In this document: piece by piece, positions 4,487 to 61,890 of the stretch | How positions within the stretch are numbered: the stretch's first letter is position 1 | How the letters are laid out: each line of letters begins with the position of its first letter | Origin: Pseudomonadota bacterium | Lineage (GTDB): Bacteria > Pseudomonadota > Gammaproteobacteria > Burkholderiales > JACQAP01 | Assembly: GCA_038040175.1 (NCBI GenBank) | Contig: JBBPIT010000009.1 | Span: 6,931-70,930, forward strand | Reading direction: 5' to 3' | Length of the DNA stretch: 64,000 nucleotides | Position numbers and translations under genes: made by a program | Notes under the pieces: generated by a model | Told to the model about the DNA's origin: nothing | Databases searched by the model: none | What the model saw: only the letters and a program-made list of their open reading frames with translations

Positions 4487-5872
4487 TTACAGAGTAAAAA
4501 TCTTCCCCGGATTCATGATGTTTTGCGGGTCGAGGGCCTTCTTGACCTGGCGCATCACGCTGACCGCTTCGCCGTGTTCGGCGATGAGGAACTTCATCTT
4601 GCCCAGTCCGATGCCGTGCTCGCCGGTGCAGGTGCCGTCCATCGCCAGCGCGCGCATCACCAGCCGCTCGTTCATCCGCTCGGCTTCGGCGATTTCCTTC
4701 GGATCGTCGCGATTGATCAGGAATCCGAGGTGGAAGTTGCCGTCGCCGACGTGGCCGACCAGTGGCGCGGTGAGGAAGCTTTTTTTCAGGTCCTTCTTGG
4801 TCTCGAGGATGCATTCAGCGAGGCGGGAGATCGGAACGCACACGTCGGTCGCCCAGATTTCGCAGCCGGGACGCAGCGCCTTGTTGGCGTAAGTCACATC
4901 GTGGCGCGCCGTCCACAGCGCGTTACGGTCTTCCGTCTTGGTCGCCCATTTGAATTCGCCGCCGCCGTTTTCCGCGGCGATCGACTGCACCATTTCCGCC
5001 TGTTCCTTGACGCCCGCGTCGGTTCCGTGGAATTCGACGAACAGCGTGTCCTTGACCGGATAGTTCAGCTTGGAGAACTTGTTCACCGAATCCATCTGCA
5101 CGTCATCGAGCAGCTCGATGCGCGCGACCGGAATGCCGAGCTGGATGGTCTGGATCACGGTGTTGACCGCGCCTTCGATGCTGTCGAACGAGCATACGGC
5201 CGCCGCCATCGCTTCGGGAATGCCGTACAGGCGCAGCGTCACTTCGGTGATGATGCCGAGCGTGCCTTCGGAGCCGACGAACAGGCGGGTGAGGTCGTAA
5301 CCGGCGGCGGATTTGCGCGCGCGCCGCGAGGTGCGGATGATGCGGCCGTCGGCGAGCACCACGGTCAACGCCAGCACGTTCTCGCGCATGGTGCCGTAGC
5401 GAACCGCGTTGGTGCCGGAGGCGCGTGTCGCGGCCATGCCGCCCAGAGAGGCATCCGCACCCGGATCGATGGGGAAGAACAGGCCCTGGTCGCGGATGTG
5501 CGCGTTCAACTCTTTGCGGGTCACGCGTGCCTGCACGGTGACGTCGAGATCTTCCGCGCTGACCCGCAGGACCTGATTCATGTTCATCAGATCCACCACC
5601 ACGCCGCCCAGGTGAGGGATGACGTTGCCCTCGAGCGAGGTGCCGGTGCCGTAGGCCACCACCGGCGTGTTGTGCCGGGCGCATATACGGACGATCTCAG
5701 CGACTTCCTCGGTGGTATTCGGGAATACCACCGCGTCCGGCCGGTGCGGGTGATGCCAGGATTCGTCCTTGCTGTGGTGGTCGCGCACCCCGGTGCTGGT
5801 GGAAAGTCGCTCACCGAAGATGGCCTTCAGCTCGTCGATGGCGGACTGGAGCTCTATTGCGGGGAGGCTCAT
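4487..5872 (-). CDS. FAD-linked oxidase (D-lactate dehydrogenase / GlcD-like)
   Basis: 461 aa. The N-terminal FAD-binding PCMH pattern is PDAVVFPNTTEEVAEIVRICARHNTPVVAYGTGTSLEGN. The C-terminal pattern is HVGDGNFH...GTCTGEHGIGLGK. Confidence 0.85.
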   Translation of the reverse strand: MSLPAIELQSAIDELKAIFGERLSTSTGVRDHHSKDESWHHPHRPDAVVFPNTTEEVAEIVRICARHNTPVVAYGTGTSLEGNVIPHLGGVVVDLMNMNQVLRVSAEDLDVTVQARVTRKELNAHIRDQGLFFPIDPGADASLGGMAATRASGTNAVRYGTMRENVLALTVVLADGRIIRTSRRARKSAAGYDLTRLFVGSEGTLGIITEVTLRLYGIPEAMAAAVCSFDSIEGAVNTVIQTIQLGIPVARIELLDDVQMDSVNKFSKLNYPVKDTLFVEFHGTDAGVKEQAEMVQSIAAENGGGEFKWATKTEDRNALWTARHDVTYANKALRPGCEIWATDVCVPISRLAECILETKKDLKKSFLTAPLVGHVGDGNFHLGFLINRDDPKEIAEAERMNERLVMRALAMDGTCTGEHGIGLGKMKFLIAEHGEAVSVMRQVKKALDPQNIMNPGKIFTL

Positions 5873-6017
5873 TCGGATTTCCTCGGGAAGATAGGTTGCA
5901 TGTGACGGGGAAAGTCAAATCTTACCGCAAGGGCGCCTTGTCGACCCGTGTGTGCGGTGCAGGTTGCGGGTATCCCTATCATCAGCTACTTTGAGGCCCT
6001 TGGGAATCGCGAAGGGA

Positions 6018-7433
6018 ATGGCAATGCGAGCTGTGTCAGTCGGGGGGGCGGCAATCGTGCTGGTGTCCGGCTTGGCGGTGCCGGCGGCACTGGATGAGAT
6101 TCCGGTGGCGGCGCTTTCGGCCGGCAGTTTTACCGTCGCGCTCGCCGACCGTACCGCGTTCTCCGAACCGGCGCCGGTACTCGATTACCGGCAGAGAGAG
6201 AAATTCCTGCGGGGGCGGCAGCATTTCAACCAGAAATGGGTGGTTGCCCCGTCCCTCGGCGGCGATTGGGGGTTGGGCCCGACTTTCATCGCTGACCGAT
6301 GCTCGGGTTGCCACGTCGGTGGTGGGCGCGGCGACACCCCGAAGTCGGCGGACCAGCAACTGTTTTCGGTTTTGGTACGCATTTCGATCCCGGGCAAAGA
6401 TGAGCATGGGGGGCCGAAGCCGCACCCGGACTACGGCGACCAAATCCAGAACCAGGGCCTCATGGGGCAGGACCGCGACGCGACGTATCTGGGGGAACGC
6501 GTGCCGCAGGAAGCCAATCTGTATCTCGACTGGCAGGAAACGCCTGCCACGTTCGCGGACGGCGAAAAAGTCACGTTGCGCAAGCCGCGGCTGCGAGTGG
6601 AGAAGCTCAAATTTGGGCCGCTCGGCCCCGAGGTGATGTACTCATTGCGGATCGCGGTGCCGACTTTCGGACTGGGACTGCTCGAAGCGGTGAGCGAGGC
6701 TGACATTCTCGCCATTGCCGAGAGGCAAAAAGTGCAAGGCGTGAACGGGCGCCCGAATTACGTCTGGGACGCAATCGGCAAACGCGTGGCGCTGGGACGG
6801 TTCGGCTGGAAATCGAATCAGCCGTCGATCAGGCAGCAGATCGCCGCGGCGTTTCACGGCGACATCGGCGTGACCTCGCCGGTTTTCGACAGGGAGAATT
6901 GTCCGCCGGTGCAGGCAGATTGCGCATATCAGCCGCCGGGCAACCAGCCGGAACTCGTTGAGGTCAACTGGGACGAACTGGAGTTCTGGACCCGGGCGCT
7001 TGCCGTGCCGGCACGCCGGGGTGTCGATACCCCGGGTTACAAGCGCGGGGAACGGCTATTCGTCGAGGCGCAATGCGCGGTCTGCCATGTGCCGGAGATG
7101 AAGGCCGGGGTGCTGCCGGGACTGTCGCAGATCCAGGGCCAGGTTTTTCATGCCTACACCGATCTGCTTCTGCACGACATGGGCGAGGAGCTTGCCGATG
7201 GACGCCCCGACTTCAAGGCCGGACCGCGCGACTGGCGCACCCCGCCGCTGTGGGGACTCGGCTTGTCGCAGACTGTGAACGCAAGCACAGCGATGCTGCA
7301 CGACGGCCGCGCCCGCAACGCCACCGAAGCCATCCTCTGGCACGGCGGCGAAGCAGAGACCGCACGCGAGGCATTTCGAAACATGCCGAAGGCGGATCGG
7401 GAGGCGCTCCTCAAGTTTCTCTCCTCGATTTGA
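6018..7433 (+). CDS. DUF1111-type di-heme oxidoreductase (putative peroxidase/thiol oxidoreductase family)
   Basis: ORF 5952..7433, with the likely start at MAMRAVS (6018). Two CxxCH motifs are present (CSGCHVGGGRG and CAVCHVPEM). The tail RTPPLWGLG...LHDGRARNATEAILWHGGEA is characteristic of DUF1111 as I remember it. Confidence 0.75.
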   Translation: MAMRAVSVGGAAIVLVSGLAVPAALDEIPVAALSAGSFTVALADRTAFSEPAPVLDYRQREKFLRGRQHFNQKWVVAPSLGGDWGLGPTFIADRCSGCHVGGGRGDTPKSADQQLFSVLVRISIPGKDEHGGPKPHPDYGDQIQNQGLMGQDRDATYLGERVPQEANLYLDWQETPATFADGEKVTLRKPRLRVEKLKFGPLGPEVMYSLRIAVPTFGLGLLEAVSEADILAIAERQKVQGVNGRPNYVWDAIGKRVALGRFGWKSNQPSIRQQIAAAFHGDIGVTSPVFDRENCPPVQADCAYQPPGNQPELVEVNWDELEFWTRALAVPARRGVDTPGYKRGERLFVEAQCAVCHVPEMKAGVLPGLSQIQGQVFHAYTDLLLHDMGEELADGRPDFKAGPRDWRTPPLWGLGLSQTVNASTAMLHDGRARNATEAILWHGGEAETAREAFRNMPKADREALLKFLSSI

Positions 7434-7450
7434 ATGGCTGTCGGAGTGAT

Positions 7451-8035
7451 ATGCGGCTGATCACCTGTTGCGGGCGCACGCTAGGCGGTCGGGCTTGGGT
7501 GGCGATCCTTGGGTTCGGAGCGCTCGCCTGGCTGCCGTTTGAAGCGGCCGCCGCCACACCTGAGGAACTGCTCGCCCGCTACGAAAGGGAAGCGCGCGCC
7601 GAAGCGCCGGCATTTCACGGTTTTTCCGCCGAAGAAGGACGGATGTTCTATTTTCAGAAATACCCGGTGCCGATTCTTGGCGAAGTCGGCTGCGTATCCT
7701 GCCATTTGCAGGACCCTCGCCGGTCCGTCATGCGCCATCGCACGAAAATCCCCTGCCGCGCATGCCACGTCATCGACGACGCCGAGCACGTTGACCCGGT
7801 GAACGCCAAGAAACGGGAAATCAACGCGTTCGCCCCCGTAGCCAATCCGCGCAGATTCACCGATCCGAAAATAGTGGAGAAATGGTTCCAGTTGAACTGC
7901 AACTACGTGCTCAAGCGTTCCTGTACGGCCACTGAAAAGGGCAATCTTCTGGCCTGGGTACTCAGCCTGGAGCGGAGCGCCATGGACAACAAGCCGGAGT
8001 TGGGGAAAGAGTACGAGTGGTTGCTCACGGAATGA
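7451..8035 (+). CDS. Putative secreted di-heme cytochrome c (DUF1924-like)
   Basis: Internal ATG of ORF 7073..8035, giving MRLITCCGRTLGGRAWVAILGFGALAWLPFEAAAA as the signal peptide. Two CxxCH motifs are present (CVSCH, CRACH). Confidence 0.6.
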   Translation: MRLITCCGRTLGGRAWVAILGFGALAWLPFEAAAATPEELLARYEREARAEAPAFHGFSAEEGRMFYFQKYPVPILGEVGCVSCHLQDPRRSVMRHRTKIPCRACHVIDDAEHVDPVNAKKREINAFAPVANPRRFTDPKIVEKWFQLNCNYVLKRSCTATEKGNLLAWVLSLERSAMDNKPELGKEYEWLLTE

Positions 8036-8160
8036 ACGGCCTCGCGGGATTGACCGGCCGCGCTCGCGCGGGGCGCCGTCTCTGAATCGGCAGGCGGATT
8101 ACCCGGAGCGCCCATTGCGGGCGCCTGGATTGCCGCGGGCATAGCTCTGGTGCGGCGACG

Positions 8161-8188
8161 ATAAAAAAGCCGGGGACAAGCCCCGGCT
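8161..8188 (-). terminator. Rho-independent terminator after the amidohydrolase gene
   Basis: Stem AGCCGGGG/CCCCGGCT with a 5-nt loop. The plus-strand A-run ataaaaaa becomes a U-tract on the minus-strand transcript. Confidence 0.7.
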
Positions 8189-8207
8189 TGAATTGTCGGA
8201 CGAACCC

Positions 8208-9755
8208 TCAAACAGCAGGGATGCCTGTGTAGTTGCTCTTGGCGACATACCCGTAAGCGGCGTTGCTGCGCTCGCCGCCCATGGCGATGTAGTCGGCTTT
8301 GATCTGGGCGATTTGATCCTGGGTGAAGGGTTTGCCTTCCGTGATCTTCATGTCGAGCTGGTACAAGTGCGCGCAGTTCAGTCCGAAGATTTTCTGTTTG
8401 ACCTCGCTGTTCGGCCCGCCAAGGCGGGTTTTCCACTTGAACTTCTTCATGATGTCGTCCGGTATCTCGATCCGGCGCATGGCTTCGATCTGCCACTGTG
8501 GGCTGCCGTACCACACCGAGTCGGAGCCCCATACCACCCGCTCTGCCCCCATCATATTCACCAACTGGCCGAGGAACGCGGCGCAGAAGCGCGGGTTGGT
8601 GACCGCGGTGCTGGCGAACACACTGCCCAGTTCGGCGTACACGTTGTTCACGCCGAACTTATCCGGGATGCGCGCCAGGTCGGTGGCCCACTCGACATAG
8701 CCTGTATCCAGGAAGGCCTGCAGATCCTTGTCGGGCTGATCGGCCAGCCAGGGGCGCAGCGCTGCGTGGTAAATGACGAAATTCATTCCCGGCCAATCCT
8801 TGGCAGCCTTGCCCAGGTCTCGTACCGTGGCGCTTTCCCAAGTACCCGCGAAGGCCTTCTCGTAGTCGCGCGGCATCAGCCCCTTGTGGATGCAGATGGT
8901 ATTGATGCCCGACTTGATCGCCTTCTCGTAGAACGGGTACATCAGTTTTTCGTCATCCAGGCGCCATGCGTACTTGGACGGCCCGAACGGATCGCCGATG
9001 GTGTAGGACTTCCAGGAGACCGGATGTAGCGTGTCAATGGCGCGATCCACTTCGTCCATCCAGTTCGGGTACTTCGGCGTGATGATCGTGTGGCCAAGCA
9101 TACGAGTGCCGCCGGCCATCTTGTTCACGGAGCGGCAGGCGTTCTGGATCGCGTCGTTGGACAACAGCCACCAGCTCGGATCGTCGAACGGCGCGCCCGA
9201 CAGCAGCGACATCTTGGTATCGCTGTCGAGGAAAATCTCCTTCAGGTAGTTGTCCATCTTGTAGCGCGACAGGGTCAGTGGCACCGACATGATGTCGGGG
9301 TTGACCTTTGCGTTCACCGCCCACTTGGTCAGTCCGAGCAGACCTTCCTGCTTGAAGTCATCGCGTATGAAGTGGGTCTGGTCATCGAAAATGAACTGGC
9401 CGGCAAGCTGGCCGGCCCGGTATTTCGACATTTCCATGTCGGCCGCCTCAGCCTCGGAAACATCCCAGACCGGGCCGAAAACCTTGTTCATCGCCAGAAA
9501 CGCTGTCGCCATGCCGGCACTGCTTGCCAGAAACTGGCGGCGGCTGATGTTGTGGCGTTTGGCCTGAACGTCGGCCAACTCCTTGATCAGGCCCTCGACC
9601 TTCTTCTGGTCATCGGTTTGGGGCAGCGGGTTGTACTCGCCATTGGAGACGACCTGCGTTGGAACCGGCGAGCGAAATGCCACCTCGTCCGCCGGCGCGA
9701 CGAGCTTCATCTCGTCGTCGCTCATATGCACGCCAATATGTCTTTGAATTGTCAT
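8208..9755 (-). CDS. Tat-exported amidohydrolase-family (TIM-barrel metal hydrolase) protein
   Basis: 515 aa with a twin-arginine signal SRRQFLASSAGMATAFLAMN. The long C-terminal part resembles amidohydrolase_2-type proteins (ICIHKG...VIYHAA...VVWGSDSVWYGSPQ). Confidence 0.65.
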   Translation of the reverse strand: MTIQRHIGVHMSDDEMKLVAPADEVAFRSPVPTQVVSNGEYNPLPQTDDQKKVEGLIKELADVQAKRHNISRRQFLASSAGMATAFLAMNKVFGPVWDVSEAEAADMEMSKYRAGQLAGQFIFDDQTHFIRDDFKQEGLLGLTKWAVNAKVNPDIMSVPLTLSRYKMDNYLKEIFLDSDTKMSLLSGAPFDDPSWWLLSNDAIQNACRSVNKMAGGTRMLGHTIITPKYPNWMDEVDRAIDTLHPVSWKSYTIGDPFGPSKYAWRLDDEKLMYPFYEKAIKSGINTICIHKGLMPRDYEKAFAGTWESATVRDLGKAAKDWPGMNFVIYHAALRPWLADQPDKDLQAFLDTGYVEWATDLARIPDKFGVNNVYAELGSVFASTAVTNPRFCAAFLGQLVNMMGAERVVWGSDSVWYGSPQWQIEAMRRIEIPDDIMKKFKWKTRLGGPNSEVKQKIFGLNCAHLYQLDMKITEGKPFTQDQIAQIKADYIAMGGERSNAAYGYVAKSNYTGIPAV

Positions 9756-29684: not shown

Positions 29685-29930
29685 ATGAAGACAACCGTAG
29701 ATATTGCTGACCCATTGCTCGACGAGGCGAAAAGAGTCGCAAACCGCGACGGTACGACTGTCAAGGCGCTGCTGGAGCAGGGGCTGAGACAGGTGCTGTC
29801 GGAGCGCAAGACCGCCGGCGCATTTCGCCTGCGCAAAGCGACATTCCGTGGGCGCGGACTGCAGTCCGGCGTTGCACATCTGTCCTGGGACCGAATTCGC
29901 GATCTTGCCTACGAGGGGCGAGGCGGATGA
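29685..29930 (+). CDS. vapB: Type II antitoxin, VapB family
   Basis: Trimmed to MKTTVDIADPLLDEAKRVANRDGTTVKALLEQGLRQVL. It overlaps the downstream PIN gene by 4 nt. Confidence 0.8.
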   Translation: MKTTVDIADPLLDEAKRVANRDGTTVKALLEQGLRQVLSERKTAGAFRLRKATFRGRGLQSGVAHLSWDRIRDLAYEGRGG

Positions 29931-30967: not shown

Positions 30968-31188
30968 TTCGCCAGCTCTCGCAACACCGCCCGCCGCTCC
31001 TTCATGATTTCGCGTGCAGTCTTCATCTGCTCCTCGAAATCGGGGTTATGTGGGGTGATGCGATAGCCGTCCGGCGACTCGGTAATGTAGACCTCGTCGC
31101 CCTTTCCAAGCTTGAGCCGCGCAAGCACTTCCTTCGGCAGGATGACGCCGACCGAATTGCCGATCTGGGTGAGTTTGAGGGTGAACAT
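30964..31188 (-). CDS. AbrB/MazE/SpoVT-type antitoxin partner of Doc (Phd-like role)
   Basis: Trimmed to MFTLKLTQIGNSVGVILPKEVLARLKLGKGDEVYITESPDGYRITP. It overlaps the doc start by 4 nt. Confidence 0.85.
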   Translation of the reverse strand: MFTLKLTQIGNSVGVILPKEVLARLKLGKGDEVYITESPDGYRITPHNPDFEEQMKTAREIMKERRAVLRELAK

Positions 31189-31573
31189 GAGGTACCTCAG
31201 CCGAGTTATAACAATCGTTACATTACATTGATATTTAGATAGTTTCAAACTTGATTGACTGTCTGGACAAGTCCGTCCGATCGCTCCTCCCGCTACCCGC
31301 TTTCGAGCGCATGAACTACTTTAAGGCTAGGTTTTCGGCAGCGTTATGGAGCCGTGTAAAGCGGTAGCCGTCACGATGGTCGCCACGATGATAGTGAGAC
31401 GCGCGCTTTTTCGGCCGGCGGTTGCCACGCCGAGTCAATGGAAAGTCTCTGCAATCGTCACTGGATCCCGTCTGCTGGACAATCTCCGGCAATGAGGTTG
31501 TAATGCCGCGACACGGCGCAACGTACACCGTGATATCAAGACCAGATCGAATTTGGCAACGCGGAGGAGAATC

Positions 31574-41879: not shown

Positions 41880-42037
41880 ATGGCGTCGAGCGCCCTGCTA
41901 GGCGGGGAGAACCCGCTCGCCTCCCCGGCTCGCGCTCGTTCCCCCACCGCAATCGATGAAACCATCTTCCGCTTCTTCCTTTCAGACATTGGGTACCTAC
42001 CTTTCGACAGTAATTTTACGAAGGTAGGTGTCTCACG

Positions 42038-42130
42038 TTACATTGGCACAAACGGGGTTCTCGTTTTGCCCGACGTTGTTTCACGCACGTAGAGCTTCAC
42101 CAGAGCCGACGTATCCAGGTAGAGGATCAA
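42038..42130 (-). pseudogene. Truncated vapC (PIN-domain toxin) remnant, about 30 codons
   Basis: A TTG overlaps the antitoxin stop (TTGA). It reads (M)ILYLDTSALVKLYVRETTSGKTRTPFVPM*, which is the conserved PIN N-terminal strand/helix and nothing beyond it. Confidence 0.6.
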
Positions 42131-42390
42131 CGGCGATCCTCGGATACCCAGTCGGCGAGCGAAACCCCTTTGGGCATGACTTCGCCTTTCCGAAGTCCGC
42201 TGGGTTTACCGCCATTCCAGAGGATGCCGGGTGTGTTTGCGAGTTCCTTCAGTGAAGGCTTCCGTTTGATTGGGATGATTTTTGCCACCGGGCGGTTATG
42301 AATGCTGACCGTTATGGTTTCGCCGGCCTCGACTTGGCGAATGTACTGACTCAAGTTGGCTTTCAGATCGCGAATGCTGGTGTCCATCAA
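42127..42390 (-). CDS. Phd/YefM-family antitoxin
   Basis: 87 aa, MMDTSIRDLKANLSQYIRQVEAGETITVSIHNRPVAKIIP. Confidence 0.8.
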   Translation of the reverse strand: MMDTSIRDLKANLSQYIRQVEAGETITVSIHNRPVAKIIPIKRKPSLKELANTPGILWNGGKPSGLRKGEVMPKGVSLADWVSEDRR

Positions 42391-42459
42391 TGTGTCCCTA
42401 TTTCGAATTTGTAGTCACATTCTAAAGCAAGCCTGGCGGTCCTGGGGAAAGAGGCCGGT

Positions 42460-42759
42460 TTACAACGCTTTCCACAGCAGGGACAGTCCGCTGACCAAAA
42501 GCAGGACGCTGAAGAATCCGCCGAACAGTCCGGTGGGAATTCCCCACCAGCGCGAAACGCTCTTGGTCGAGGCCTTTGCGATCAGCCGGTACACGCCGTA
42601 GCCGGTCACGAATGCGCCGAGCAGGATCACCGTCGCCTCCTTCGGCAGCGTGGCCAGCAGCGTCACGCCGGCCAGGATGCCAGCGATCAGCGGCGTGGCA
42701 ATCAGGGTTTCGAGCGGGAAAGGCATGTCGTTACTATCCGCGAGAGAAGAATTGGCCAT
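42460..42759 (-). CDS. TauE/SafE (TSUP)-like membrane protein fragment
   Basis: 99 aa with about 3 TM segments, resembling only the C-terminal part of TSUP permeases of roughly 250 aa. It is probably a remnant. Confidence 0.35.
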   Translation of the reverse strand: MANSSLADSNDMPFPLETLIATPLIAGILAGVTLLATLPKEATVILLGAFVTGYGVYRLIAKASTKSVSRWWGIPTGLFGGFFSVLLLVSGLSLLWKAL

Positions 42760-42820
42760 TCGCTACGAATGCCACCATTCCGGAGCAATTGAAGAGAGAA
42801 TGGTTTGCGCCGGCTCAGGT

Positions 42821-59241: not shown

Positions 59242-61890
59242 TTACTTTACCCGCATGCCCGGCTGCGCGCCATCGTCGGGCGAGAGCAGGAAAATGCCCG
59301 GCCCGTCGCCGCTGGCGGCCAGTACCATGCCCTGGGATTCCCCGAAGCGCATCTTGCGCGGCTGCAGGTTGGCGACCATCACCGTAAGCCGTCCGACCAG
59401 CTTCGCCGGGTCATATGCCGACTTGATGCCGGCGAACACCTGGCGGGTTTCGTTGCCGAGATCGAGCTGCAGTTTGAGCAGCTTGTCGGCGCCTTCCACG
59501 TGCTCGGCACTGACGATGCGCGCGACGCGCAGCTCGACTTTATTGAAATCATCGATAGTGATAAGCCCCTCTCCCTCGGGGAGAGGGGTCTGGGGTGAGG
59601 GAGACGTCGGGGTGGAGGTCATTTTGTTCACCATGTTCCATATCGACTCGAGCACCGAGTCGGTTTGCGAGAGCACATCGTTATTCCAGAACCGCAACAC
59701 TTCGATTCGAAGTGCCGCGAGCGCTTGTGTTCGGGAATCGTCGTACGAGCGTGCCGTTTGATGTTGGCCACCATCCAGTTCGATGGCGAGTTTCAGCTCG
59801 TGGCTGTAGAAGTCGAGGACGTATCGATGTCCACTGAATTCCACGGGATGTTGCCGGCGAAACTTCGCGCCGGCAAGCCTTCGATCGCGCAGCAAAAACC
59901 AGACTAGTTGCTCGGCGTCTGTTTGGACGGCGCGCAACTTGCGCGCGAATTCCAGCAGATCAGGTGGGACGGGCGGTTTTTTCTTGAAAAGGCTTTTTTT
60001 CCCCTCACCCCCCGCTCCCTCACCCCCCCGCCCCTCTCCCGGAGGTAGAGGGGAGCTGGCCGGTTGCAGGCTTTCCTTGTTGGCTTCGACCAGCGCGGTG
60101 ATCTGTTTGGGGTCGATCCTCATCATCAAATGCGAATATTCCTGAACGCGATGATTCTCCAAGAGTCTGGACGCGTCCTTCCATTCAAGATCCCCGTCCC
60201 GAATAAACTGCTCGGCTGAGGATGCAAGTGTTGGCAGTACTGGCTTCAAATAAATGGTAAGCAGCCGAAAGAGATTGATAGTGACGGTGCAGACTTCGTG
60301 AAGATCCGAAGTTTTCTGTGCGTCTTTTGCAAGTTCCCAGGGTCGATTCAGATCAAAATACTTATTTGCGAGATCGGCTAAGAACATAACTTCCCTTATC
60401 GCACGGCCGAACTCGCGCAACTCATATAGTGTGGCTATCCGTGCCGCATCAACCATTGCGACAGACAATAATCTCGCGGGGTCTATTGGTAACTCGCCTT
60501 CCGAGACTAACCTCAGAAACGCATCACGCTCGAATTCGTCAACCGACTCATCTCCAGGACTAAAGTCAAACAACCCCATCGTCCTGATCGAGTTTGAGTA
60601 CGCAGTCACTTCGGCTGAGTAGTGCAGCGAACCAATCTCGTTGTTGAACTTGCTTCTTAGAAAGGATGCAGCTCTGCTTGCGATGTTGACGTACTTGCCG
60701 ATCAGATCGCTGTTTACCCGCGCGACGAAGTCCTCGAGGTTGAGGTCGATGTCCTCCATGCTCGCGTTGAGCTTCGCCGCGTAGTAGTAGCGCAGCCACT
60801 CGGGATTCAGCCCCTGCTTGAGGTAGCTCTCGGCGGTGATGAAGGTGCCGCGGGACTTGGACATCTTCTGTCCGTCCACCGTGAGGAAGCCGTGGGCGAA
60901 CACCTTGGTCGGCGTGCGGTAGCCTGCGAATTCCAGCATTGCCGGCCAGAACAGGGCATGGAAATAGAGGATGTCCTTGCCGATGAAGTGGACCATCTCG
61001 GTATTGCCGCCCGGGCGCAGGAAGGCGTCCCTGTCGATGGTCTTGCCCGCCGCTTTCTGTTTGGCGACGTAGTTGCCGAAGCTGCCGAAGTATCCCACCG
61101 GCGCATCCAGCCAGACATAAAAGAACTTCTGGTTGTTGGTGCCCGGGATCGGAAAGCCGAAGTAGGGGGCGTCGCGGGAAATGTCCCAGTCGGCCAGCTT
61201 GTTATCGCCAGGCTCGCCCAGCCACTCTTTCATCTTGTTCGCCGCTTCCGGCTGGAGGCGGTCGCCGGTCTGGGTGAAGCGGCGCAGGAAATCCTCGCAT
61301 AGTTTGTCGGAAAGCCTGAAGAAATGGTGCTCGGAGGCCTTGCGTTCCGGCCTGGCGCCTGAAACCGCCGAGTAAGGATTGATGAGGTCGGTGGGCGAAT
61401 ATGTGGTGCCACAGACTTCGCAAGAGTCGCCGTACTGGTCCTTCGAGTGGCAGTTCGGGCACTCGCCCTTGATGTATCGGTCCGGCAGGAACATCTGCTT
61501 GACCGGGTCGTAGAACTGCTCGACCGACCGTCTGGCGATCAGGTTCTTCTTGTCCAGCTGGCGGTAGATGTCCTCGCAGAAAGCCTGGTTCTCCGGGGAA
61601 TTCGTGGTGTAGTAGTTGTCGAAGGCCACATGGAAGCCGGCGAAGTCGCGGGTGTGCTCGCCGTACACGCGGGCGATCAGTTGCTCCGGGGCGATGCCTT
61701 CCTTGTCGGCGCGCAGCATGATCGGCGTGCCGTGGGTGTCGTCGGCGCAGACGTAATAGACCTCAGTGTCGGCTTGCATTCTCTGGAAGCGCACCCAGAT
61801 ATCGGTCTGGATGTATTCCACGAGGTGGCCGAGGTGGATGCTGCCGTTGGCGTACGGCAGCGCCGAGGTGACGAGGATCCTGCGCGACAT
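59242..61890 (-). CDS. metG: Methionine--tRNA ligase carrying an in-frame DUF559 insertion (882 aa)
   Basis: [28 protein letters not shown] contains the HIGH motif. The Zn knuckle is [25 protein letters not shown] is present. The anticodon-binding domain contains [21 protein letters not shown]. The C-terminal Trbp111-like domain runs [17 protein letters not shown]...[13 protein letters not shown]. There are 166 extra codons between the last two domains. Confidence 0.95.
59563..60060 (-). mobile_element. 498-bp cassette bounded by terminal inverted repeats, encoding a DUF559 (Vsr-like endonuclease fold) domain, inserted in frame in metG
   Basis: In the sense (minus-strand) orientation, the 5' end is ccctctacctccgggagagggg-cggg-ggggtgagggag-cggggggtgagggg. 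The 3' end is ctccctcacccc-aga-cccctctccccgagggagagggg. That gives imperfect inverted repeats of about 25 nt, each with a self-complementary hairpin. The interior encodes [63 protein letters not shown]...[13 protein letters not shown]. Calling it mobile is inference. Confidence 0.7.

Follow-up and report, generated by a model that had tools for sequence, protein, structure and literature searches.

We analyzed metG, the gene for methionyl-tRNA synthetase (MetRS), in a 64-kb stretch of DNA from a Pseudomonadota bacterium of the Burkholderiales (contig JBBPIT010000009.1). This whole stretch is referred to as the window, and all coordinates are positions within it. metG lies on the minus strand at 59242-61890 as a single intact open reading frame (ORF) of 882 aa, and it contains the part of the 64 kb with the lowest GC, at 59557-60681. 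Taken together, the evidence makes it likely that this tract consists of two adjacent metG modules with separate histories, an exchanged allele of the anticodon-binding domain (ABD) and a DUF559 cassette. The ABD allele at 60112-60681 (aa 404-593) is the sole module for which the data establish exchange as a unit. In gene order, and all on the minus strand, the ORF encodes a catalytic core (aa 1-403; 60682-61890) with a Pfam tRNA-synt_1g match at aa 5-407, the variable ABD, in which the Anticodon_3 match is weak (aa 486-573), a conserved linker helix (aa 594-612; 60055-60111), an in-frame DUF559 domain related to Vsr-like PD-(D/E)XK endonucleases (aa 646-754; 59629-59955; PF04480, E 4e-32), and a C-terminal, Trbp111-like tRNA_bind domain (59245-59556; PF01588 at aa 787-879).

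A computed profile bore out the compositional dip that a first-pass annotation of this DNA had described from hand counts. Recounted GC was 0.41 at 60300-60399, 0.50-0.52 at 60100-60249, 0.53 at 59600-59699 and 0.56-0.64 at 61000-61149, reproducing all four of those counts. GC at third codon positions (GC3) was 0.70-0.97 over aa 1-390 (mean 0.88), 0.40-0.63 over aa 391-585, 0.53-0.77 in the DUF559 cassette and 0.77-0.90 in the C-terminal tRNA_bind domain, or about 0.5 in the tract compared to about 0.87 for the remaining metG. The dip is one-sided, as had been noted, with a GC-rich C-terminal domain that shares a host-like composition with the core (GC3 ~0.88). Across the 64 kb, both the lowest 500-bp GC (0.482) and the lowest 1100-bp GC (0.531) fall inside the tract, as does the lowest 180-codon GC3 of all window coding sequence (0.54; mean 0.80, sd 0.07), and the 540-bp ABD stretch at 60136-60675 has a GC of 0.485 (z = -3.8). 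As the ABD and the core are carried on a single mRNA, codon selection tied to expression cannot account for the low GC3. The AT-rich tract yielded neither an internal promoter nor a terminator. Next in order of low GC are the patches at 41880-42800 and 30968-31552 (0.51-0.54), which lack any ORF of at least 120 aa and look intergenic. An Rfam scan of the whole window returned zero families at gathering score; ARAGORN called a 97-nt tRNA-Arg(TCG) at 29789-29885, and since the Rfam scan gives no tRNA, this is either a doubtful call or an atypical gene.

The edges of the tract are sharp when the window is aligned to close relatives, all of which are metagenome-derived. The conspecific sequences L081 and L082, from a JGI metagenome, have the same dcd-apbC-metG-acyP-dnaE order as the window and match it at 99.5%, 97.0% and 98.1% nucleotide identity over both sides of the tract, with the core at 98% to L081. 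By contrast, there is zero alignment to L081 between 60676 and 59556, where 1119 bp in the window face 663 bp in the cassette-free L081. A two-breakpoint maximum chi-square scan of this pair, the kind of recombination test that the first-pass annotation had proposed, found breaks at 60681 and 59553 (chi2 693), so that together with the loss of alignment it delimits the strain-specific tract of ABD allele, linker and cassette at 59557-60681. Inside the breaks 297 of 618 aligned sites differ (48%), compared to 37 of 1518 outside (2.4%). The 5' break, in the ...VNIASR codons (aa 404-406; 60667-60681), was found in all comparisons, recurring against nine more relatives with 82-96% flank identity, L001, L083, L002, L003 and L084-L087 among them. 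On the 3' side, homology to L081, L001 and L084 returns at 59556-59562, and against cassette-bearing alleles the break lies at about 60111-60117, next to the linker helix. The DNA of this helix is nearly invariant, with a 36-nt stretch that has 1-5 differences per allele in a nucleotide alignment of 12 alleles, and is a possible 3' homology anchor for the ABD module. The core would serve as the 5' homology arm and the C-terminal domain as a 3' arm.

Two further observations came from these alignments. A small second mosaic patch lies in the catalytic core at 61501-61590 (aa 101-130), where the window allele is 75-80% identical in amino acids to L081 and L001 and closer to L083, and the codons around it are 98-100% identical at the nucleotide level. 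In L083, a gene for an Lhr-type helicase (1445 aa) and a DUF6016 gene, at 4613-9475 of that sequence, separate the acylphosphatase gene from dnaE; these two genes are adjacent in the window and in L081, unlike L083.

Synonymous divergence, estimated by the Nei-Gojobori method, distinguished the tract from its flanks. Between the window allele and L081, the core had a synonymous divergence (dS) of 0.04 and a nonsynonymous divergence (dN) of 0.01, while the ABD had a saturated proportion of synonymous differences (pS 0.74) and a dN of 0.59. The C-terminal domain, at dS 0.18, was above the core. Across comparisons, core dS was 0.04-0.36 while ABD pS was 0.74-0.87. Synonymous saturation is beyond the reach of protein-level selection, indicating that the interior of the tract differs in ancestry from its flanks and is far older. 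In control genera (Burkholderia, Cupriavidus, Limnobacter, Rhodocyclaceae and Propionivibrio), ABD dS was similar to core dS, and alleles without a GC3 dip, including those of Burkholderia, Cupriavidus, Limnobacter and Rhodocyclaceae, had a median ABD identity of 84% at 90-97% core identity. Ordinary relaxed constraint was rejected on these grounds.

At the protein level, identity between the window allele and its nearest relatives is 95-97% for the core and 97-99% for the C-terminal domain, and the ABD region (aa 393-600) is 32-48% identical to every one of 120 relatives, with 35-48% for the ABD module itself. Over 97 sequences the Spearman correlation with core identity was 0.05 for the ABD and 0.88 for the C-terminal domain. 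Mantel tests on 79 dereplicated sequences agreed (core and ABD, r -0.06, p 0.78; core and C-terminal domain, r 0.87, p 0.0005), such that the history of the ABD is incongruent with the core, as the first-pass annotation had led one to expect, and that of the C-terminal domain follows it. Median ABD identity was 38% in pairs with 95-98% core identity, and seven genomes with 89-98% core nucleotide identity carried seven distinct ABD alleles (35-51% aa). When grouped at 70% identity, the 97 sequences fell into 48 ABD types. A GC3 dip was present in 20 of the 65 loci for which we had DNA, for example in Gallionella, Nitrotoga and other Nitrosomonadales-type metagenome-assembled genomes, with ABD GC3 of 0.32-0.66 compared to 0.57-0.88 in their own cores. 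The dip alleles span several betaproteobacterial lineages, and in the clade of the window every sampled allele dips.

Despite this divergence, the variant enzymes probably keep their function, judging from the intact ORF, conserved key residues and a confidently predicted fold. N402, R406, N509, P517 and W518 are invariant across 60 alleles and D506 nearly so. By alignment we take these to be the counterparts of N391, R395, N452, P460, W461 and D449 of E. coli MetRS, which lie within or next to the motifs responsible for reading the CAU anticodon. The ABD was predicted by AlphaFold2 (AF2) to be a helical bundle (pLDDT 80-96). The MetRS peptides quoted in the first-pass annotation are present in the ORF, and the roughly 40 extra residues that it had mentioned correspond to an insert of about 49 aa (47-50 residues at aa ~422-470; 60481-60627, minus strand), where the solved structures 5urb, 7ulz and 1qqt have about 10 residues and an alignment gap. 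The insert, absent from solved MetRS structures, is predicted to form two additional helices (425-437 and 449-463; pLDDT 53-80), and among relatives the length at this site varies from roughly 0 to 60 aa.

Pairs that share an ABD type were informative about both constraint and spread. The ratio of dN to dS (omega) in the ABD of same-type pairs was about 0.10 overall, 0.40 in the insert and 0.04 for the remaining ABD, and at the level of sequence the ABD is thus under purifying selection within allele types. The same types turn up in different samples, and their ages do not match those of the genes that carry them: L083 and L088 had an ABD dS of 0.39 vs 0.73 in the core, L087 and L089 had 0.19 vs 0.57, and the type shared by L081 and L003 was older than the core (pS saturated vs core dS 0.61). 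Shared types that are younger or older than the core indicate that ABD types carry their own genealogies, separate from the surrounding gene, which is a prediction of block exchange and not of in-place hypermutation.

The second module is the DUF559 cassette, which occupies about 490 bp (59566-60053) and is in frame in a disordered linker of MetRS. Its ends are imperfect inverted repeats of 38-39 nt that are about 85% complementary (39-nt blastn self-match, 85%), one at 60015-60053, upstream in gene orientation, with a CCCCTCT..GGAGAGGGG-type hairpin, and the other downstream at 59566-59603. Each repeat holds a CCCCTCTCCC/GGGAGAGGGG hairpin, which in the downstream copy reads CCCCTCTCCC-N3-GGGAGAGGGG. 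The repeats are translated as Pro/Gly-rich disordered linkers (pLDDT <45), between which AF2 predicted a folded DUF559 domain (pLDDT 76-94). The domain carries nuclease-like motifs (LDF, IELDG.QH and RFWN), conserved across 31 alleles. The window allele and L085 have the cassette and L081 and L084 lack it, at 94-98% nucleotide identity. It is bounded by terminal inverted repeats, as a mobile cassette would be. For a target-site duplication the linkers differ, leaving no clean comparable empty site, and DUF559 is nuclease-like and not a known transposase. The closest homologs outside metG are mostly stand-alone DUF559 proteins of 120-280 aa, with a few fusions, namely to a tRNA_bind-only "MetRS beta" in Candidatus Methylospira, to Maf (PF02545) and to a Ham1-like domain (PF01725). 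On sequence grounds, these features suggest that the cassette is a mobile element that tolerates read-through. Some cassette-free linkers (7780-7870 of L081, and those of L001, L063 and L019) contain a solo sequence resembling the cassette repeat (CTCACCCC..CCCTCT..CCCCTCAAGGGGG, translated ..SPPPSTPQGG..), and these may be footprints of cassette loss or separate insertions of a hairpin repeat.

Two other identities for the cassette were considered and rejected. An intein was rejected in the absence of a Hint or intein Pfam match and with junctions made up of Pro/Gly-rich translated repeats. An invertible, shufflon-like segment was rejected as well: no plus-strand ORF spans 59604-60014, and the stops in reverse mean that inversion would truncate MetRS.

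The first-pass annotation had proposed that the cassette and the neighboring ABD arrived together from a lower-GC allele by homologous replacement, in the manner of homing-type co-conversion. Replacement is upheld by the sharp breaks, the saturated synonymous sites of the ABD and the incongruence of the segments. Joint arrival is not, and it is here that the two modules come apart. Across the 31 cassette-bearing alleles, cassette identity tracked core identity (rho 0.56) and was independent of ABD identity (rho -0.05). Cassettes that are 86-94% identical adjoin ABDs that are only 32-54% identical, and one ABD type was found both with and without a cassette. In pairs that share an ABD type, the dS values of ABD, cassette and core all differ; for L083 and L088 the cassette reached 1.51 vs 0.39 for the ABD. 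Moreover, the cassette-free L081, L001, L003 and L063 have unrelated ABDs of low GC3, the ABD of L084, also cassette-free, is equally unrelated, several Nitrosomonadales and Gallionellales have cassette-free dip alleles too, and L006 bears a cassette and lacks the dip. The decoupled identities and dS values leave co-conversion unsupported as the cause of the tract. We accordingly regard as unlikely the scenario in which a homing-type DUF559 cassette invaded metG and dragged along the ABD of its lower-GC donor as a one-sided tract, even though it would account for a good deal: the presence or absence of the cassette at a single site among conspecifics, its conserved nuclease motifs and inverted repeats, a block diverged from L081 that is continuous over ABD, linker and cassette, the elevated dS of the C-terminal domain beside the cassette, and the precedent of Legionella, in which DUF559 repeats were reported as hotspots of recombination during experimental evolution (PMC12308824). 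A single joint import of ABD and cassette into this particular genome is compatible with the data, since the searched databases hold no close relative of its ABD.

We therefore return to an exchanged ABD allele beside a cassette of separate history, and several observations weigh against it. A cassette or repeat-like linker motif was present in 11 of 20 dip alleles vs 4 of 45 standard alleles (Fisher p 1.3e-4, uncorrected for kinship), an enrichment that homing would also predict; the modules may not be fully independent at the level of lineages, or the cassette may turn the linker into a recombination hotspot without co-inheritance with a particular ABD. Such a weaker link would fit the Legionella hotspots and an enrichment of DUF559 genes at loci predicted to be invertible (PMC9881135). 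The dip ABDs do not cluster and look like isolated long branches, which faster evolution would fit too. Import is read from the pattern, since an ABD-only search of 5.8e9 proteins gave best identities of 46-58%, with no donor or close relative of the window ABD, and with this search empty a lower-GC donor is something that we infer. Finally, the metagenomic origin of all relatives limits what can be said of allele frequencies within populations. Diversification of the ABD in place, by a local mutator (a mechanism like that of diversity-generating retroelements (DGRs), or error-prone repair at breaks) or by very strong positive selection, with no exchange, would fit the isolated branches and missing donor, an AT-shifted composition of the kind that mutation bias predicts and the variable length at the loop site of the insert. 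Yet it is very improbable, as synonymous sites are saturated, which protein-level selection cannot achieve, while the flanks differ by 2%, identity shifts within a few codons, several species have types in common with ABD dS below core dS, purifying selection acts within types, and the 64 kb contains neither another copy of the tract nor a template repeat for it. Least credible of all is an artefact of assembly or binning that fused contigs of different organisms inside metG. The relatives do all come from metagenomes, and many ABD matches sit on short contigs that end nearby, but the same in-frame architecture and breakpoint occur in more than 10 independent assemblies, including contigs of 25-480 kb, two contigs of one sample share an allele, different samples share ABD types, and the ORFs are intact with their key residues conserved.

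Searches for a template or reservoir were likewise negative within their scope. Neither the ABD nor the cassette has a second copy in the 64-kb window at the DNA or protein level, and a DGR or silent-cassette template was rejected in the absence of a repeat copy of the tract there. Two candidate stand-alone ABD reservoir proteins, P0140 and P0227, turned out to be frameshift-split metG gene calls. Most of the ABD-level matches (P0121-P0240) are partial MetRS from 1-3 kb contigs, for which "subunit beta, partial" is a frequent annotation; such short contigs would fit assemblies that break at a hypervariable ABD through strain-level variation. For a viral source, a scan for exact alleles was empty and a profile scan led to three IMG/VR contigs, none of them a low-GC source. 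One of these, L092 (IMG/VR UViG_3300037010_000511), is phage-like, with 47% GC, a family B DNA polymerase (PolB), a 5'-3' exonuclease, a DnaB-like helicase and many ORFans. Its metG (5719-7773 of that contig) encodes a complete bacterial-type MetRS with tRNA_bind and has a uniformly high GC3 of about 0.85, with no dip. This GC3 is far above the contig background, suggesting recent capture from a host. Phage carriage of metG does occur, and such phages are a possible vehicle for alleles, though not the source.

In the history that we favor, the ABD of the window is one among dozens of deeply diverged alleles that have kept the scaffold and the CAU-reading residues, such that the enzyme should work. 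At all other positions these alleles have diverged from one another, to about 40% identity and with saturated synonymous sites, and whole blocks apparently pass between strains and related species. The route that would account for this is ordinary homologous recombination of incoming DNA, anchored in conserved flanking codons, with ...KYVNIASR upstream and either the conserved linker helix or the C-terminal domain downstream. The cassette appears to follow neither the ABD nor, strictly, the core, and its presence varies among conspecifics; as a palindromic element in the linker, it may raise the local recombination rate. Low GC3 could reflect residence of the alleles in AT-richer hosts or mobile elements. 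Alternatively, alleles that are too divergent may stop recombining, escape GC-biased gene conversion and drift toward the mutational AT bias. Our best guess is that the alleles are maintained through frequency-dependent selection, imposed by an agent that binds to the surface of the ABD. Taken further, the ABD could behave like an antigen, in which ancient, equivalent alleles are kept by negative frequency-dependent selection against an intracellular antagonist (a phage protein or a delivered toxin), shuffled by recombination and boosted by the cassette. We hold this extension only tentatively and think it more doubtful than not; if true, metG would be the first gene for a core aminoacyl-tRNA synthetase that has been described as containing a hypervariable arms-race locus.

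Several known systems resemble parts of this picture. The mosaic penA alleles of Neisseria have known donors, namely commensal species, and were selected by beta-lactams, with a divergence of about 10-20% in the imported blocks. Like the metG tract, they are blocks of an essential gene replaced via conserved flanks, with sharp breakpoints and incongruent segments (PMC10926701). Unlike penA, the metG ABD has saturated alleles (~40% aa), dozens of which coexist, and its donor search was empty. A second parallel is with the central domain of the flagellin FliC and the target-recognition domains of type I HsdS proteins, hypervariable modules that lie between conserved arms, are exchanged as a unit, occur as many deeply diverged types and are often atypical in composition. 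However, fliC and hsdS encode surface antigens and specificity determinants under obvious diversifying pressure, whereas the metG ABD is cytoplasmic, housekeeping and devoted to an invariant anticodon. Co-conversion around homing endonucleases (group I introns, inteins and free-standing genes) likewise places a nuclease-like ORF at a polymorphic site in a conserved gene with a mosaic neighborhood. In metG, by contrast, flank similarity does not track the cassette, the tract is also found in cassette-free alleles, and the cassette is neither an intron nor an intein; it is translated in frame and has inverted repeats at its ends. Aminoacyl-tRNA synthetases are known to undergo whole-gene horizontal replacement and duplication, as with the second MetRS of Streptococcus pneumoniae. 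Horizontal movement is common to both cases; in metG, however, the ABD moves alone, and the core and C-terminal domain follow the organism. The literature that we searched, on DUF559 and homing, on hypervariable MetRS ABDs and on mosaic synthetases, held no account of this pattern. Recombinational mosaicism is a known mechanism, and this case is unusual in where it strikes, in how deeply the alleles have diverged and in how many of them there are.

Genes for aminoacyl-tRNA synthetases are regarded as slow-evolving, vertically informative housekeeping genes, and metG is among the commonly used phylogenetic markers. Its core and C-terminal domain do behave as vertical markers, but the ABD between them differs at about 60% of residues between conspecific strains, and dozens of ABD allele types circulate across species. 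An endonuclease cassette can moreover occupy the linker of a normally essential enzyme in frame, with the ORF and the predicted flanking folds intact. If the pattern holds, full-length metG would be unsafe as a marker in these lineages, and the hypervariable ABD would help to explain possible breaks of metagenome assemblies inside the gene. Engineering would gain a natural collection of interchangeable ABDs, and the question would arise of which intracellular agent favors diversity on the synthetase surface.

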